Shown here piece after piece: positions 2,882 to 54,347 of a stretch of DNA of 64,000 bases. The position numbers were made by a program, and so were the translations under genes. Position 1 is the first letter of the stretch; every line of letters begins with the position of its first letter. The stretch comes from Escherichia coli (lineage in GTDB: Bacteria > Pseudomonadota > Gammaproteobacteria > Enterobacterales > Enterobacteriaceae): assembly GCF_044324785.1 (NCBI RefSeq), contig NZ_CP172127.1; one strand, 5' to 3'. The notes under the pieces were generated by a model that did no database searches, was not told the DNA's origin, and worked only from the letters and a program-made list of their open reading frames with translations.

Positions 2882-3014
2882 TCTGTTAAAAGCCAGAAGC
2901 ATTCCCTTCGCTGACTTTATAGTCAACCATAACACACACTCTACTGTCTGAGTCCAGCGTTTTTTAACATTCTTGTTAAGATTATGTGATCTTTAGCGCG
3001 GGAGGAAAATATTG

Positions 3015-3671
3015 ATGAAACAGCCTGCGCCCGTTTATCAGAGAATTGCGGGTCATCAATGGCGACATATCTGGCTTTCAGGCGATATACACGGTTGTCT
3101 TGAGCAGTTGCGCCGCAAATTATGGCATTGTCGTTTTGATCCGTGGCGAGATTTACTTATCTCAGTGGGAGATGTTATCGATCGTGGGCCGCAAAGTTTA
3201 CGTTGTCTGCAGTTACTGGAACAACATTGGGTTTGTGCGGTAAGAGGCAATCATGAACAGATGGCGATGGATGCGCTGACATCTCAGCAGATGTCTTTGT
3301 GGTTGATGAATGGCGGCGACTGGTTTATTGCGCTGGCAGATAATCAACAGAAACAAGCGAAAACGGCGCTGGAAAAATGTCAGCATTTGCCCTTTATTCT
3401 TGAAGTACACAGTCGCACCGGCAAACATGTTATTGCTCATGCCGATTATCCAGATGATGTTTATGAATGGCAAAAGGACGTTGATTTGCATCAGGTCTTG
3501 TGGAGCCGCTCGCGATTAGGTGAACGCCCAAAAGGGCAGGGAATTAAAGGTGCTGATCATTTCTGGTTTGGTCATACACCGTTGCGACATCGCGTGGATA
3601 TTGGCAACCTGCATTATATTGATACCGGTGCTGTCTTTGGGGGCGAACTGACTCTTGTGCAATTGCAATAA
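3015..3671 (+). CDS. pphA: Serine/threonine protein phosphatase 1 (PrpA)
   Basis: Track ORF 3012..3671 (219 aa) with the second Met giving 218 aa, MKQPAPVYQRIAGHQWRHIWLSGDIHG; calcineurin-like phosphoesterase signature GDxxDRG present (GDVIDRG). Confidence 0.9.
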   Translation: MKQPAPVYQRIAGHQWRHIWLSGDIHGCLEQLRRKLWHCRFDPWRDLLISVGDVIDRGPQSLRCLQLLEQHWVCAVRGNHEQMAMDALTSQQMSLWLMNGGDWFIALADNQQKQAKTALEKCQHLPFILEVHSRTGKHVIAHADYPDDVYEWQKDVDLHQVLWSRSRLGERPKGQGIKGADHFWFGHTPLRHRVDIGNLHYIDTGAVFGGELTLVQLQ

Positions 3672-3863
3672 TTAAAAATCACCGTACTCCTGTGCTGGTC
3701 GCCAGAAACCATCAATAAAATCCTCGATTGGAAAACAACCGCCATGGCGGATCCGTTGATCGCTCATAGAATAAAGACACTGCTGTTCCGTGTTGTAGAC
3801 ATCCACAACAATATCTTCACAACCGCCATCCAGGTAGCAAACAAAAAGTACCAGCGCGAACAT
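3672..3863 (-). CDS. yebW: Small protein YebW (63 aa)
   Basis: Track ORF 3672..3947 trimmed to internal Met: MFALVLFVCYLDGGCEDIVVDVYNTEQQCLYSMSDQRIRHGGCFPIEDFIDGFWRPAQEYGDF. Confidence 0.8.
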   Translation of the reverse strand: MFALVLFVCYLDGGCEDIVVDVYNTEQQCLYSMSDQRIRHGGCFPIEDFIDGFWRPAQEYGDF

Positions 3864-18830: not shown

Positions 18831-18923
18831 ACTTTGCTTTCTCTTCGCTCCAGTCGTTCGGATATTTGCCCGCCGCGTGATTCGCGTTACACTTGCGGCC
18901 TTTAGTATCCTGCCGGAGTTGTC

Positions 18924-19733
18924 ATGTCGTTTTCCTGTCCACTTTGCCATCAGCCTCTTTCGCGTGAAAAAAACAGCTATATCTGTCCCCAGCGACATCA
19001 GTTTGATATGGCGAAAGAAGGGTATGTCAATCTGCTGCCCGTTCAGCATAAACGGTCTCGTGATCCGGGCGACAGCGCGGAAATGATGCAAGCACGCCGC
19101 GCATTCTTAGATGCCGGACATTATCAGCCGCTGCGTGATGCAATTGTCGCTCAACTGCGGGAACGGCTTGATGAAAAGGCCACAGCGGTGCTGGATATTG
19201 GCTGTGGTGAAGGGTATTACACACACGCATTTGCCGATGCGCTGCCCGAAATCACCACGTTTGGCCTGGATGTCTCGAAGGTAGCGATAAAAGCGGCGGC
19301 GAAACGCTATCCGCAGGTCACTTTTTGTGTTGCTTCCAGCCACCGTTTGCCGTTTTCCGATACCAGTATGGACGCCATAATACGTATTTACGCGCCGTGT
19401 AAAGCAGAAGAATTAGCGCGAGTAGTGAAGCCTGGCGGTTGGGTCATTACTGCCACGCCGGGACCGCGACATTTGATGGAGCTGAAGGGGCTGATTTACA
19501 ATGAAGTACATCTTCATGCACCACATGCAGAACAACTGGAAGGTTTTACATTACAGCAGAGTGGTGAGTTGTGTTATCCGATGCGTCTTCGCGGTGACGA
19601 AGCCGTCGCATTATTGCAGATGACGCCGTTTGCCTGGCGTGCGAAGTCAGAAGTCTGGCAAACACTGGCAGCAAAAGAAGTGTTCGACTGCCAGACGGAC
19701 TTTAATATTCACCTCTGGCAGCGTTCTTATTAA
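18924..19733 (+). CDS. rlmA: 23S rRNA m1G745 methyltransferase RlmA
   Basis: 269-aa ORF with N-terminal Cys4 zinc motif (CPLCHQ...CPQRH) and SAM-binding DIGCGEG motif. Confidence 0.9.
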
Positions 19734-20296
19734 CCGTGGAAGTGCGTCCAGAGGATCTGGACGCCGATGCCGATCAGTACCAGCCCACCGAGAATTTCCG
19801 CTTTTTTCCCAATAATTGAGCCGATAAAGCGACCAACCATCATCCCTAATGTCGACATAATCAAGGTTGCACAACCAATGGCCAATGCGGTCGCGATAAT
19901 GTTGACCTGCAGAAAGGCGAGACCAACACCCACAGCCATGGCATCCAGGCTGGTGGCAATCGCGGTGGTTACCAGTAGCCAGAAACCGTGTCGACGGCGC
20001 GGTTCTTGATCTTCATCATCTGCGCCACGAAAACCCTCAATAATCATTCGCCCGCCGAGGAATATCAGCAGCACAAACGCAATCCAGTGGTTCCATTCAA
20101 GGACAAACCGGCTGGCTAACATGCCCATTCCCCAGCCGATCAGCGGCGTCAGGGTTTCGACGGCACCAAAAATAAGGCCGGTTCGCAACGCTTCAGAAAA
20201 TTTCGGTTTATGGAGGGTGGCACCTTTACCGATTGATGCAGCAAATGCATCCATCGACATACCAAACGCAAGAAGAACAGTAGCAGTGATATTCAT
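19730..20296 (-). CDS. mntP: Manganese efflux pump MntP
   Basis: Track ORF 19730..20350 trimmed to [25 protein letters not shown]... (188 aa); stop codon overlaps the rlmA stop in a TTAA tetranucleotide. Confidence 0.85.
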
Positions 20297-49353: not shown

Positions 49354-50535
49354 TTAGCGAATTTCTTTGTCTCTCCCGGCGCAAAGTCCGAAAATCGCCA
49401 TCAGTAGTGAAAGTATGGCAACACCCATCAATGGTATGGACCAGTCACCGTTAGTATCGTGTATTTTACCCATCAGCGGCGGCCCACAGGCTGCCAGCAA
49501 ATACCCGACGGATTGTGCCATCCCCGAGAGTGCCGCCGCCTGATGCGCAGAACTTGCCCGAAGACCAATGAACGTCAACCCTAGTATCATTGTTGCGCCG
49601 GAACCAAAACCGAAAAGCAGAGTCCAGGTGATCGCGTGCGCTGGCATAAAGCAGAGCCCAACCGCGCCCACTGCGCACATCAAGGCAACGAACGCTGCAA
49701 TACCACGCTGATCTTTCACATGATGTAAGAAAAGTGGGATCAGCAAACCGGGAGCTGCTGTGGCTAGTTGCAGCAAACCATGCAGTGAACCCGCCTGTGC
49801 TTCGCTATAGCCGTGACTGATGAGGATCGCCGGAAGCCAGCCAATAATCACGTAATAGATCAGTGAGTTGATCCCAAGAAACAATGTTACCTGCCAGGCA
49901 AGCGGCGAACGCCAGATACCCCGAGTATGTAAGGCGCGTGAGGTACTCAAATTTGCATGTTGTTGACTTCGCCACTGTGGCAGCCATAAAAAAAGAGCCA
50001 GCAGAGGAAAACACATCAGCATGAGCAACGCGCCTTGCCAGCCAAAACCGTTCAAAGCCAGCGGCACGACCATAGCCGATCCCAGTGCCGCTGCAGCTCC
50101 CATTGTCAGGGAATATGCGCCGGTAAGTCTGGCGACGGAATGAGGGAAATCGCGTTTAATTAATCCTGGCAGTAAGACATTGCCTAATGCAATCCCACCG
50201 CCAATGACCGCTGTACCGCCAAATAATAAGTAAGGCGAAGGGAGAGAGCGAATTGCGATACCAGCACAGATCAAAAGTAACGCGGCAAACAGGCTACGCT
50301 CCATACCAAAACGTCGCGCCACCGGGGCAGCCAGCGGTGAGATTAGCGCAAAGGCTAATAATGGCAGGGTGGTCAATAAGCCGGTTTGCGCCGTCGTCAG
50401 CGAGTAAGCGAAACGAATCGTATCCAGTAACGGTGCTGCGCCGGTAAAGGTGACGCGTAATGTTGTGGCAATCATTAGAATGCCAGCGATAAGGACAATC
50501 CTGTTTTTGCCGCTTAATGAAGTTGAACAGGTCAT
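49354..50535 (-). CDS. yeaN: MFS transporter YeaN (cyanate-transporter-like family)
   Basis: 393-aa 12-TMS-like ORF; divergent from nimR. Confidence 0.85.
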   Translation of the reverse strand: MTCSTSLSGKNRIVLIAGILMIATTLRVTFTGAAPLLDTIRFAYSLTTAQTGLLTTLPLLAFALISPLAAPVARRFGMERSLFAALLLICAGIAIRSLPSPYLLFGGTAVIGGGIALGNVLLPGLIKRDFPHSVARLTGAYSLTMGAAAALGSAMVVPLALNGFGWQGALLMLMCFPLLALFLWLPQWRSQQHANLSTSRALHTRGIWRSPLAWQVTLFLGINSLIYYVIIGWLPAILISHGYSEAQAGSLHGLLQLATAAPGLLIPLFLHHVKDQRGIAAFVALMCAVGAVGLCFMPAHAITWTLLFGFGSGATMILGLTFIGLRASSAHQAAALSGMAQSVGYLLAACGPPLMGKIHDTNGDWSIPLMGVAILSLLMAIFGLCAGRDKEIR

Positions 50536-50631
50536 ATGCTTCTCATTGTTACAAACGAGGCTGTACCTTACCGTTTTTATTGTTATGTTGAATCAAGCTA
50601 AAATGACAAATTATCGCTAAATTCGGACAAA

Positions 50632-51453
50632 ATGATGCATAGGTTGAATCTCAATGGCTATGAACCCGACCGACACCATGAAGCCGCGGTCGCATTTTGT
50701 ATTCACGCCGGAACGGATGAGTTAACCAGTCCTGTACATCAGCACCGCAAAGGGCAGCTGATACTGGCGCTACATGGTGCAATTACCTGTACGGTGGAAA
50801 ATGCTTTGTGGATGGTGCCGCCGCAATATGCGGTTTGGATACCGGGAGGGGTGGAACATAGCAATCAAGTGACAGCTAACGCTGAACTCTGTTTTCTGTT
50901 TATCGAACCCAGCGCAGTGACAATGCCGACAACCTGTTGCACATTGAAAATATCGCCCTTATGCCGGGAATTAATTTTAACCCTGGCAAACAGGACGACG
51001 ACTCAGCGTGCTGAGCCGATGACCCGCAGATTAATTCAGGTCCTGTTTGATGAACTCCCTCAGCAGCCACAACAACAGCTGCACCTACCCGTTTCTTCTC
51101 ATCCTAAAATTCGCGCGATGGTGGAGATGATGGCGAAAGAGCCCGTCGAGTGGGGGTCATTGGGGCAATGGGCTCGCTTTTTTGCGATGAGTGAACGCAA
51201 TCTTGCCCGACTGATAGTGAAAGAGACGGGGTTGAGTTTTCGCCAGTGGCGTCAGCAGTTACAGCTGATTATGGCGCTTCAGGGATTAGTGAAAGGCGAT
51301 ACTGTACAGAAAGTTGCTCATACGCTGGGGTATGATTCAACAACGGCCTTTATTACTATGTTTAAGAAAGGCCTGGGGCAAACGCCAGGCCGATATATTG
51401 CGGGATTAACTACTGTTTCCCCACAATCAGCGAAACCAGACCCGCGGCAATAA
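50632..51453 (+). CDS. nimR: AraC-family transcriptional regulator NimR (YeaM)
   Basis: 273-aa ORF with N-terminal cupin-like domain and C-terminal AraC helix-turn-helix; 3' end overlaps yeaL by 44 nt. Confidence 0.85.
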
Positions 51454-51856
51454 GCGGGCCAACCGGTACGCCGCGAAACAGCGCCACGCCCAAAACAGTG
51501 CCCACCAGCAGCCCGGCGACCAGTTGCGGCTGGCTGCCCATTAACGTCACGCCGCGCCCACCTAGCCAGGAGACAATAACGCCTACTGCAATTGCCACCA
51601 GCGATTTCCAGTTCAGAAACGAGTGAATCAGGGTTGAGGGCGGTAGCGTCCCGCTGGCGATGGGGGCCATAACGCCAATCGTCAGAATGATTATCCCGAT
51701 ACTTAGCCCCTGTTTTTCAATCCACGGGAAAAAGGTGCTTAACGGTGTGACGCGGACAATGATTAACACCAGAATTGAAACGGCGACAGTGGTGTTATGA
51801 CTGATAAAGCCCAGCGCAGCTAACCCGAGCAGGATCAGCAAAGTGACATCAAACAT
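51410..51856 (-). CDS. yeaL: UPF0756 membrane protein YeaL
   Basis: 148-aa hydrophobic [42 protein letters not shown]... Confidence 0.8.
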
Positions 51857-52025
51857 CGTGGTTTCCTTGCCAAAGAATAATAAGCCTGCTTACTTTACGC
51901 TTGCTGCAGGAAGGAAGTAGAAAATCTTTACGTTTTTTGCATAAAAAATCAGGCGAACTGTCATCAAACTGCCATTTGCGCACGCTAACAATAACGTGAA
52001 AACAGCTATCTCCCGGGGGCATACT

Positions 52026-52130
52026 ATGAACGATCAAATGTTCGTCGAGACTCTGATTATCACGTCATCGTTTTTTGCCATTGCTGTTGTGCTGGTTTTG
52101 TCCGTTCTTCTTATCGAACGGACAGGCTAG
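52026..52130 (+). CDS. yoaI: Small membrane protein YoaI (34 aa)
   Basis: Hand translation [34 protein letters not shown]; its stop abuts the yeaK stop on the opposite strand. Confidence 0.7.
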
Positions 52131-52634
52131 TTACGCAGTGCGGCGGAAATTGACCAGTTCTGGTTGCGCAATGCGCAAATAATCCGCGGTTTTCAAAATA
52201 ACGGATTTATCCAGCATGCCTGCATTGAAGGCGATTTCATCAAATCGTTCGAAGAGTAGGGGATCGGCAACCAGTTTGAGTTTTGGATGGAAGCTGAAAG
52301 GGGGGATCGCGCCGAAGACACAGCCTGTGAGTTCATCGACTTCCGCCGGGCTGGCCAACGAAGCGCGTAATCCGCCTATATGGCTGGCGAGTTGGCTCAG
52401 ATCGGCCTGTTGATCGGCAGCGAGGATCGCCAGAACATGTTGATTTACACCATTGCCTTTGACTTTACATACCAGTGCCTTAGCCCCCTGGCCTAAAGCG
52501 GTGCCACGAATTTCTGACACCGCTTCACATTTACCTACCGCTTCATGGGTAACGACGCGGAAGTCAGCACCTTCTTGTGATAATAAAGCGATTAACCGCT
52601 GATGCGTCACGCTTCCTTTAGCCATTTCAGTCAT
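52131..52634 (-). CDS. yeaK: YbaK/ProX-family aminoacyl-tRNA deacylase YeaK
   Basis: 167-aa ORF MTEMAKGSVTHQRLIALLSQEGADFRVVTHEAVGKCEAVSEIRGTALGQGAKALVCK... Confidence 0.85.
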   Translation of the reverse strand: MTEMAKGSVTHQRLIALLSQEGADFRVVTHEAVGKCEAVSEIRGTALGQGAKALVCKVKGNGVNQHVLAILAADQQADLSQLASHIGGLRASLASPAEVDELTGCVFGAIPPFSFHPKLKLVADPLLFERFDEIAFNAGMLDKSVILKTADYLRIAQPELVNFRRTA

Positions 52635-52676: not shown

Positions 52677-54167
52677 TCATGAACGGCTGTTTTTGTTCTG
52701 CTTATTGACATATAAACGCTCATCGGAAGCTTTATACGCATCATGTAACGTATCGTTTTCTTTCATCGCGTAAATACCGGAAGAGAAGCCGATCTCTTTC
52801 TGCGGCGCGATATGTTGCAGACGTTTTTCGATACGTTCAGGCAGTTGTGCTGCAATTTGCGGCGTTGAATCGACAAGAATGATGCAGAATTCATCGCCAC
52901 CGAGTCGGATGGCATAATCACTTTTACGAATCGACTGTTTAATCGCCTGCGCTAATAACGTAATCGCTAAATCCCCCTCCTGATGACCGAGGGTGTCATT
53001 TATTTGCTTTAACTTGTCCATGTCAATTGCAATAAACATCACCGAAGAACCGGATTGCACCAGTTTCTGCAACCGCTGCTCCAGTTCAGGGGTTAAAATT
53101 TTGCGATTATACAGTCCAGTCATCGCATCACTAATATTTTCTCGCGACACATTTTGGTATAAACGGAAGTGCATCCGGACCATATTCAACAAAATTAATG
53201 CCGTCAAAATCCAGAACAGAACGCTTTTCCACGAAGACGTGATAAAGTAAAGAATATCAATGGATAACGAGACACGAATGCCGCCCGGTAAGTCATGGAC
53301 GTAACTGACATACTGGAACAGATTATCTTCGCTCTGGTTGATGATAATGTCGCGCCCCGAATCGGTATCGGTTAGCGTGACATTGAGAAAACGCCAGAGG
53401 AGAGGGCGGTCATGAGTGTAAAAGATATTCCGCAGATTGTTTTTGTTAATATCCAGCAGCACAATCCCTTTTAGCTGCCCTGCGACATATACCGGCGTCA
53501 GCAAACTCATCACGTTCTGTTTAGTACGCTGATCCTGGTAAATGCTCGATAATACGGTACGCCCGGTAAATACCTTTTCAATATCTTTGCGATCGATGCC
53601 AATACTTCCTGACTGCAGGAAAGACCAGTTATTCATCGCAAAGTACTCAACATTAACCGGCTCATAAAAATAGACATAGCGGTCATTGAGATCGAGATAA
53701 TAGTGAAATTTCTCTTCGGCCATCCCAAGACCTGAACCGTAATCATCCTGGTGGCGGTTGCCTTCCACTGCCTGATCAAAAGCGGGTAATAGTGCAGCAG
53801 CTTCCACAATTGTGTCGCAGTCAGTGGATGCGGTTTGTAGTGTGCCGCGTAAGCCCGGGTATTTATGGGCAGTCAGGTTTAAGCCATGGGTATTATTGGC
53901 AGACTCAAAAGCCTCGCAGATGGCGCGCCGCTGTTCTGGCGACACTTCCGACTGCTCAGCAGCGAGAGCGCGCATCACATGCGCGGCAATACTCTGATTC
54001 TGATACTTATCATAAAGAAAGGAGGAGTCTGCTCTCTGCACGATATAGCGCAGATAGGCACTCATTGCTCTGTCGCTGGCGACAAGTTCAAAAATAAGGA
54101 AGGAAGATGTCAGCACAATGACACTTGCGGCGATAAAATGCCGGAGCATTCTATGGTGCAATTTCAT
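52677..54167 (-). CDS. dgcJ: Diguanylate cyclase DgcJ (YeaJ), membrane sensor plus GGDEF
   Basis: Track ORF 52677..54347 trimmed to MKLHHRMLRHFIAASVIVLTSSF... (496 aa); GGDEF motif RLGGDEF present. Confidence 0.85.
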   Translation of the reverse strand: MKLHHRMLRHFIAASVIVLTSSFLIFELVASDRAMSAYLRYIVQRADSSFLYDKYQNQSIAAHVMRALAAEQSEVSPEQRRAICEAFESANNTHGLNLTAHKYPGLRGTLQTASTDCDTIVEAAALLPAFDQAVEGNRHQDDYGSGLGMAEEKFHYYLDLNDRYVYFYEPVNVEYFAMNNWSFLQSGSIGIDRKDIEKVFTGRTVLSSIYQDQRTKQNVMSLLTPVYVAGQLKGIVLLDINKNNLRNIFYTHDRPLLWRFLNVTLTDTDSGRDIIINQSEDNLFQYVSYVHDLPGGIRVSLSIDILYFITSSWKSVLFWILTALILLNMVRMHFRLYQNVSRENISDAMTGLYNRKILTPELEQRLQKLVQSGSSVMFIAIDMDKLKQINDTLGHQEGDLAITLLAQAIKQSIRKSDYAIRLGGDEFCIILVDSTPQIAAQLPERIEKRLQHIAPQKEIGFSSGIYAMKENDTLHDAYKASDERLYVNKQNKNSRS

Positions 54168-54347
54168 GATAAATGGCACTCCTTCGGTTAGTGAAACGAG
54201 AAAACCAGTTAAAGTTCGATTGCGGCCTGGCACAGGGGCGCTAATTATACTCATCTCTGCGCCGCTGGGGAGGGGAAATTTAGGGGTAATAGTAATAAAT
54301 TGTATGCAAAAGCCACGCAAAAAGCATGGCTCTGAATATTTTTGCAC

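Follow-up and report, generated by a model that had tools for sequence, protein, structure and literature searches.

The 44-nucleotide convergent overlap of nimR and yeaL in Escherichia coli is very probably an incidental 3′ extension of nimR

The nimR and yeaL genes and their shared 3′ ends

The nimR gene (also named yeaM) and the yeaL gene of Escherichia coli are oriented tail to tail, and their coding regions run into each other at the 3′ ends. Table 1 lists the features of the locus as found in the window, by which we mean the entire stretch of 64,000 nucleotides of E. coli DNA (contig NZ_CP172127.1) that was analysed. The shared 44 nt hold 14 sense codons plus the stop codon of each gene. 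On the plus strand nimR ends with CGG CAA TAA (51445-51453), while the yeaL stop codon TAG appears as CTA at 51410-51412. The two reading frames are in a phase where position 3 of the yeaL codons faces position 2 of the nimR codons. YeaL is an uncharacterised membrane protein of the DUF441 family (UPF0756, located in the inner membrane), and the Pfam match to DUF441 covers residues 7-145 of its 148 residues. In NimR the HTH_18 domain at the C-terminal side is preceded by an AraC_binding/Cupin_2 match at residues 22-148. NimR is characterised as a single-target repressor of the divergent nimT gene and is recorded as a protein of 273 amino acids (PMC5934670). No functional link between NimR and YeaL was found in this analysis.

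Table 1 Features of the nimR-yeaL locus, with positions numbered from the first nucleotide of the window.
Feature	Position	Strand	Extent or relation	Basis
nimR (yeaM) coding sequence	50632..51453	+	273 aa	ORF list, Pfam, RefSeq
Coding region of the NimR HTH_18 DNA-binding domain	51169..51396	+	residues 180-255	Pfam
Candidate yeaL intrinsic terminator	51360..51391	-	within nimR codons F244-R254	terminator scan
yeaL coding sequence	51410..51856	-	148 aa	ORF list, Pfam DUF441, RefSeq
Convergent coding overlap	51410..51453	both	44 nt; NimR codons 260-273 + stop, YeaL codons 135-148 + stop	
nimR codon 265, CAA (Gln), probable former stop site	51424..51426	+		anchored alignment, codon tables
Present nimR stop codon, TAA	51451..51453	+	opposite YeaL Ile136 position 1 and Leu135 (CTT) positions 3 and 2	
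C-rich, G-poor stretch of the nimR transcript, antisense to yeaL	51454..51611	+		composition

The initial annotation of this DNA had given the identities of the two genes, their coordinates, their convergent orientation and the overlap length, and all of these were correct when compared with the open reading frames, Pfam and RefSeq. It had also called the overlap the largest convergent one in the window, and this is borne out by the RefSeq annotation across the entire window, where the other tight convergent pairs are rlmA/mntP with an overlap of 4 nt, pphA/yebW and yoaI/yeaK, which abut (0 nt), and yoaE/pdeD, which are separated by a 3-nt gap. The RefSeq/PGAP annotation has the identical pair of coding sequences and the 44-nt overlap in an E. 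coli genome that is 99.8% identical and in a second strain as well, and the same overlap is found in the annotation of K-12 MG1655 (yeaL at 1874352..1874798 and nimR at 1874755..1875576). The locus was matched at 95-100% identity in 5411 of 5426 complete E. coli genomes. The overlap is genuine, and the standard annotation of E. coli, K-12 included, already has it.

Many long convergent overlaps in the databases stem from errors at the 3′ end of a gene or from frameshifts (PMC2478687), and one could therefore suspect that one of the two coding sequences ends at a wrong position and that no overlap exists. We consider such an annotation artefact next to impossible and have rejected it, because the 3′ ends of both coding sequences are fixed by stop codons and not by the gene caller. 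Both frames are intact, all strains examined are annotated with identical ends, and the locus is present in the 5411 complete genomes mentioned above. Furthermore, both proteins align with their homologues up to the overlap, and the 44-nt overlap occurs in 12 independent assemblies of the Citrobacter type.

Overlap length among relatives and the position of the nimR stop codon

The overlap was compared between species using one genome per species, which gave 80 loci with NimR relatives at 61-89% identity, and its length was determined from the first in-frame nimR stop codon relative to the yeaL stop codon. yeaL was not found nearby in 16 of the 80 loci and was more than 100 nt away in another 4, which left 60 loci where the two genes are convergent and adjacent. 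The most frequent overlap among these 60 loci is 17 nt, found in 31 of them (Klebsiella, Raoultella, Enterobacter, Lelliottia, Leclercia, Pluralibacter, a divergent Escherichia lineage and one C. youngae), followed by 44 nt in 12 loci, which are sequences of the Citrobacter freundii-complex type. Overlaps of 20-29 nt are present in four loci (C. amalonaticus, twice, S. enterica subsp. diarizonae and a Klebsiella MAG) and overlaps of 0-6 nt in five (S. enterica subsp. arizonae, Enterobacter sp. BIGb0383, Buttiauxella agrestis, Siccibacter and Trabulsiella), and in the remaining eight the genes are separated by a gap of 3-8 nt (Buttiauxella, Atlantibacter, Franconibacter and C. werkmanii). An overlap longer than 44 nt was seen in none of the 60 Enterobacteriaceae loci with an adjacent convergent yeaL.

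According to the initial annotation, an earlier stop codon in most relatives would speak against the overlap as a constrained feature, and its conservation across the Enterobacteriaceae was proposed as a check. It is clear from the comparison that the 44-nt overlap is limited to a minority of the loci and that NimR does stop earlier in most relatives, as the protein has a length of 256-266 amino acids in 48 of the 60 loci. Where yeaL is not the neighbour NimR has 262-272 residues, mostly 262-266. The protein clusters of NimR give the same result: the E. coli protein has 273 residues, a divergent clade named “E. coli” with 91% identity has 264, Salmonella has 264 or 257, Klebsiella and Raoultella have 264, and most others have 262-264. 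The junction itself is more uniform than the stop position. The codon for L259, the last conserved residue in NimR, ends 1 nt ahead of the yeaL stop codon, so that there is no spacer between the genes. No indels disturb this zero-spacer junction in Escherichia, Citrobacter, Klebsiella and Enterobacter, where the offset is constant at 17 nt.

The dependence of the nimR stop codon on the yeaL sequence was read from an alignment of 63 sequences (the window and 62 loci) anchored at the yeaL stop codon. Position 1 of each nimR codon pairs with position 1 of a yeaL codon, and nimR positions 2 and 3 face the third and second bases of the yeaL codon that precedes this one. The nimR stop codons TAA, TGA and TAG are consequently the reverse complements of NTT A, NTC A and NCT A, respectively, read across a yeaL codon boundary. 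In the 17-nt group YeaL ends with SL(F/I)IGK(S/Q), and codons 144 and 145 are TTT or ATY followed by ATY. With Phe or Ile at residue 144 and Ile at residue 145, codon 265 in nimR is necessarily TAA or TGA, which results in a NimR protein of 264 residues and an overlap of 17 nt. In the 44-nt group, consisting of E. coli and Citrobacter, YeaL ends with SLIVGKQ and the corresponding codons are ATY and GTK. Because the first base of Val145 is G and not A, nimR codon 265 becomes CAA or CGA and translation continues to the next stop at codon 274, which is created by Leu135 (CTT or CTC) together with Ile136. In the window the first base of codon 265 (51424) is opposite position 1 of Val145, and the other two are opposite positions 3 and 2 of Ile144. 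The longer NimR gains the nine residues QSAKPDPRQ.

Stops that give overlaps of 20 nt or 26 nt are possible only with particular synonymous codons in yeaL. One such case is C. amalonaticus, where a synonymous CTT codon for Leu143 produces a nimR stop codon and thereby the 20-nt overlap. The change between the 17-nt and the 44-nt state can be followed within a single species, as one of two C. youngae genomes has a YeaL with LIIGKQ and a 17-nt overlap and the other has LIVGKQ and a 44-nt overlap. A single Ile/Val change in YeaL thus switches NimR between 264 and 273 residues.

The 17-nt overlap is probably older than the 44-nt overlap, since most genera have it, the divergent Escherichia lineage among them. 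This suggests the following course of events. With the two genes placed tail to tail without a spacer, NimR ends at the first stop triplet that occurs antisense to yeaL. A change of Ile145 to Val in YeaL, on the branch towards E. coli and the Citrobacter freundii complex, would remove the older nimR stop codon, and NimR would then be read through nine additional codons to the stop at Leu135-Ile136, giving the 44-nt overlap. The added NimR tail drifts with the synonymous changes in yeaL, and the last transmembrane segment of YeaL evolves under its own purifying selection. We consider it very probable that the 44-nt overlap, although genuine, came about as a side effect, as a 3′ extension of nimR that reaches into the end of yeaL.

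Convergent overlaps are a minority among the overlaps of prokaryotic genes, and their origin has been ascribed to the loss of a stop codon and a subsequent 3′ extension to the next stop (PMC2478687); the formation of convergent pairs by stop codon loss is attributed to Rogozin et al. 2002 in the citation given by Palleja et al. 2008 (PMC2478687). Real convergent overlaps were found to be mostly limited to close relatives (PMC2478687). The nimR/yeaL pair resembles the overlaps described by Palleja et al. in that both genes are well supported, nimR extends past the yeaL stop codon, the extension is limited to close relatives and the causal substitution can be identified. It differs from their “long” overlaps by its length, 44 nt being below the threshold of 60 nt, and it differs from a mutation that is neutral to the partner gene in that the nimR stop codon was probably lost through a non-synonymous change in yeaL (Ile145 to Val). 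What defines a 3′ extension is found here: two real genes with homologues, orthologues that end earlier, and an identifiable change at the ancestral stop. The overlap is a known kind of feature that fits extension by stop loss in every respect tested.

Sequence variation in the shared codons

The initial annotation stated that the overlap must constrain both C-termini, and it proposed to examine the synonymous rates of the overlapping codons. We measured the variation in the sequences with a 44-nt overlap, 14 distinct ones that form a small sample and are phylogenetically related. The third positions of yeaL were variable in 11 of 14 codons in the overlap (79%) compared to 105 of 134 elsewhere in the gene (78%), and the mean pairwise difference at these positions was 0.315 in the overlap and 0.368 elsewhere. 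None of the 14 YeaL residues encoded in the overlap varied, compared to 9 of 134 in the rest of the protein. On the opposite strand, 11 of the 14 residues in the NimR tail were variable against 17 of 78 in the HTH domain, with mean pairwise differences of 0.327 and 0.084, respectively. At one Val codon in YeaL all four bases were seen in the wobble position, placing a K, R, T or I in NimR opposite to it. Synonymous variation in the overlapped yeaL codons was thus not reduced among the 14 sequences, and of the two encoded peptides only that of YeaL was conserved. The equal wobble variation together with the variable NimR tail implies that yeaL evolves as an ordinary gene and that the NimR tail follows passively.

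The YeaL part of the overlap (residues 135-148) falls within the DUF441 match and belongs to the conserved last membrane segment of the protein. YeaL has 148 residues in the loci where it adjoins nimR, and nearly all of its homologues have the same length (1874 YeaL and 1389 NimR homologues were found). Its C-terminus is conserved where yeaL is the neighbour of nimR, ending with (I/F)(V/I)GK(Q/S). The NimR part (residues 260-273) begins past the end of the HTH_18 domain at residue 255. In an alignment of 27 homologues Y255 is the last column without any variation, and the last nearly invariant residue is L259. Structure prediction with AlphaFold2 on this 27-sequence alignment gave a mean pLDDT of 82.8 and a final predicted helix at residues 252-260, and residues 262-273 did not reach a pLDDT of 50. 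As far as the model goes, the part of NimR encoded in the overlap is accordingly a predicted disordered tail outside the folded HTH domain.

We infer from these data that NimR residues 265-273 have no function. The 44-nt state is steady across E. coli, where two protein clusters with 3722 and 3116 members both have 273 residues, and across about a dozen Citrobacter species, and on account of this stability a small function of the NimR tail may exist.

It could be argued that the 44 nt are selected for dual coding, so that they encode functionally important C-termini of both proteins and place a mutual constraint on the sequence. In favour of this, the overlap is found and annotated all over E. 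coli, and in the phase described above any synonymous change in yeaL alters NimR; moreover, only CTY codons are used for Leu135 in the 44-nt group. The NimR tail is, however, missing in most relatives, lies outside the Pfam domain, is predicted to be disordered and varies in most of its residues, and the wobble positions of yeaL are equally free inside and outside the overlap. For the same reasons the claim that both C-termini must be constrained is unsupported, and we regard selected dual coding as most improbable.

The length of the overlap was compared with a null model where the YeaL protein and the gene spacing were kept fixed, while the synonymous codons of yeaL were redrawn from the local codon usage. 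Measured to the first stop in the nimR frame, the model gave a median overlap of 44 nt, and the probability of an overlap of at least 44 nt was 0.62. With the null median equal to the observed value, the length of the overlap needs no special explanation, which is a further point against dual coding.

A possible exception to the free variation of yeaL is the wobble position of Leu135, on which the present nimR stop codon depends. All 14 sequences with the 44-nt overlap encode Leu135 by CTT or CTC, although CTG accounts for 60% of the remaining Leu codons in these sequences, and in the 17-nt group, where the site is irrelevant to nimR, Leu135 is CTG in 23 of 31 sequences. Loss of the stop at codon 274 would add 42 codons to nimR, as the next in-frame stop is at 51577, and such a 42-codon longer extension was seen in no species sampled. 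These observations suggest, but only suggest, that weak selection keeps the codon-274 stop as a backup; the sequences compared are related, and the 44-nt group is itself defined by having that very stop.

Transcript ends and the meaning of the overlap

With overlapping coding regions, the nimR and yeaL mRNAs must overlap at their 3′ ends, too. A terminator scan pointed to a candidate intrinsic terminator for yeaL located about 20-50 nt inside the coding sequence of nimR (Table 1). It has the form expected for such an element, with a G+C-rich stem-loop followed by a U-rich tract on the 3′ side of the stop codon. The hairpin GGCCUGG-N8-CCAGGCC (51391..51370 on the minus strand) begins 18 nt past the yeaL stop codon and has a 7-bp stem with 6 G-C pairs and an 8-nt loop, and it is directly followed by the U-rich tract UUUCUUAAAC at 51369..51360. 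The hairpin is encoded by the nimR codons G247-G253 (GLGQTPG) and the U-tract by those of K246, K245 and F244. The calculated fold energy is -14.1 kcal/mol, which makes the hairpin more stable than 97% of the synonymous recodings of the same peptide. Among 21 sequences from Escherichia, Citrobacter and Salmonella, 20-21 share the same base at each of the four wobble positions in the stem (in GGC, CTG, CCA and GGC), and between two and four different bases are seen at each of the three wobble positions in the loop.

When 47 sequences from more genera were analysed with RNAalifold no consensus structure was obtained for the hairpin, and when the E. coli register was imposed on these sequences only 80% of the cells were paired, with one covarying pair. 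We therefore make no claim of a hairpin conserved throughout the family; its conservation is limited to Escherichia, Citrobacter and Salmonella. Terminator-like sites are not in excess in the region, with 2 found compared to 1.9 expected from shuffled sequences, and the supplements of TERMITe and of Adams et al. 2021 contained no RNA 3′ ends for yeaL or nimR. The candidate is like other intrinsic terminators located within the coding sequence of a convergent neighbour in having a G+C-rich hairpin, encoded by conserved codons of that neighbour, and a U-tract; it is unlike them in being predicted only, in having a stem of just 7 bp with its 8-nt loop, and in being conserved in one clade only. 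Judged from its sequence the hairpin is a plausible yeaL terminator embedded in nimR, and our opinion on this is evenly divided. If yeaL transcription ends at the hairpin, the transcripts of nimR and yeaL would have a complementary stretch of at least about 90 nt.

The candidate yeaL terminator inside the nimR coding sequence is also the only item in this study that we rated worth an experiment.

For nimR the scan found no intrinsic terminator on the plus strand downstream of the stop codon, and the fold of the segment 51440-51540 was no better than that of shuffled sequences (z = +0.30). The sequence beyond the nimR stop codon is rich in C and poor in G: in 78-nt windows across 51454..51611 the fraction of C is 0.38-0.41 and that of G 0.19-0.29, giving C/G ratios of 1.4-2.0 over approximately 160 nt. 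From its composition this stretch could serve as a loading region for Rho. A simple scan for sigma-70-like promoters in 50400..52200 gave none. A search of Rfam in 50300..52300 at E ≤ 1 gave only two sub-threshold matches, a JUMPstart match with 21.5 bits compared to a gathering score of 35 and a permuted-tmRNA match with 17.4 compared to 47, both of which we dismissed as chance.

The transcript ends bear on another explanation, namely that the tail-to-tail layout, and perhaps the coding overlap as such, is kept as a regulatory excludon, where the two genes interfere with each other through collision of RNA polymerases or through cleavage of an RNA duplex by RNase III. The yeaL-nimR pair is included in the ExcludonFinder list for MG1655, where it is one of 165 convergent excludons found in at least 50% of 58 RNA-seq data sets (PMC12288877). 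The same list contains four more pairs from this window: yeaK-yoaI, yeaO-yoaF, pdeD-yoaE and yebW-pphA (PMC12288877). The candidate yeaL terminator within nimR, the lack of an intrinsic terminator for nimR and a zero-spacer junction kept free of indels from Escherichia to Enterobacter are also consistent with an excludon. The call as such is, however, uninformative on function, as overlapping coding sequences make it automatic, and nimR/yeaL differs from most pairs in the list, where only the untranslated regions overlap, in having overlapping coding regions; its regulatory effect is putative. In 20 of the 80 species nimR does not adjoin yeaL, the 9-codon extension is not needed for the transcripts to overlap, and the extent of the coding overlap varies freely. 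In addition, only one target, nimT/nimR, has been reported for NimR (PMC5934670). We find it quite unlikely that the arrangement is maintained for mutual interference.

There is a variant of this explanation where the coding overlap is incidental, as we prefer, but where the zero-spacer junction is functional: the hairpin, kept by selection on synonymous sites in the sequence encoding the HTH domain, would terminate yeaL, and the complementary 3′ ends resulting from this would turn nimR and yeaL into a true excludon. This we consider unlikely, if a little less so than maintenance of the layout for interference. If it were true, the excludon would link the expression of nimR, a regulator of the nitroimidazole response, to that of a DUF441 membrane protein.

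The preferred reading of the overlap as an incidental 3′ extension matters little for biology at large, as the overlap is present in the K-12 annotation and a published list of convergent excludons already includes the pair. What the present check offers is mostly a negative result, in that the overlap is no evidence of a dual coding constraint or of a functional NimR tail, and it is advisable to regard NimR residues 265-273 as a neutral extension in annotation and in work on evolutionary rates. The pair nevertheless offers a clear, small example of how a convergent overlap originates and drifts, where the stop codon of one gene is set by the residues and the codon choice of the other, and where the exchange of a single residue in one protein (I145V in YeaL) would have directly rewritten the C-terminus of its neighbour.

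NimR variants and the antisense frames of yeaL

Two frameshifted variants of NimR, the Salmonella-like P0141 (305 aa) and the Klebsiella-like P0239 (336 aa), extend across the strand opposite yeaL for 40-80 codons before a stop codon ends them, showing that the antisense frames of this gene are very open. In the window, one plus-strand frame across yeaL, a G+C-rich membrane gene, contains only 2 stops in 447 nt. The E. coli variant P0121 (292 aa) carries a 19-residue internal tandem duplication in the cupin domain and has an unchanged C-terminal tail.

Table. Features at the convergent nimR/yeaL pair and elsewhere in the window.
Feature	Coordinates	Strand	Details
Terminator-like hairpin and U-tract for yeaL	51360..51391	-	inside nimR codons F244-R254
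C-rich, G-poor RNA 3' of the nimR stop	51454..51611	+	C 0.38-0.41, G 0.19-0.29
Rfam JUMPstart match, sub-threshold	51621..51650	+	21.5 bits (gathering score 35), E = 0.11
dgcJ, mechanical ORF	52677..54347	-	GTG start, 556 aa
dgcJ, RefSeq	52677..54167	-	496 aa
yoaI/yeaK	52026..52130/52131..52634	+/-	stops abut, 0 nt between
pphA/yebW	3011..3667/3668..3859	+/-	stops abut, 0 nt between
rlmA/mntP	18922..19731/19728..20294	+/-	4-nt overlap

Other convergent pairs, neighbouring annotation and a doubtful label

In the same window the convergent pairs yoaI/yeaK, pphA/yebW and rlmA/mntP lie just as close together as nimR/yeaL, and the published excludon list (PMC12288877) also includes yeaK-yoaI, yebW-pphA, yeaO-yoaF and pdeD-yoaE. 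The two lengths of dgcJ reflect an ordinary difference in start codon. The JUMPstart match, which scores under the gathering threshold, lies within yeaL on the antisense strand and is probably due to chance.

In the one-genome-per-species comparison, locus L015 comes from a metagenome-assembled genome labelled 'uncultured Raoultella sp.', yet its nimR-yeaL junction matches the one in Citrobacter braakii (L016) almost exactly and differs from the true Raoultella loci (L025, L026 and L030), which suggests that the contig is mis-binned or mislabelled.

Candidate transcript ends on the two strands

On the yeaL strand, the candidate terminator lies within the nimR coding region. Across Escherichia, Citrobacter and Salmonella the wobble bases of its stem are fixed while those of the loop are variable, and the stability of the hairpin exceeds that of 97% of synonymous recodings. 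On the nimR strand, no intrinsic terminator for nimR was found in the C-rich, G-poor stretch following its stop codon, and Rho may load at this stretch on transcripts that read through from nimR and run antisense to yeaL.
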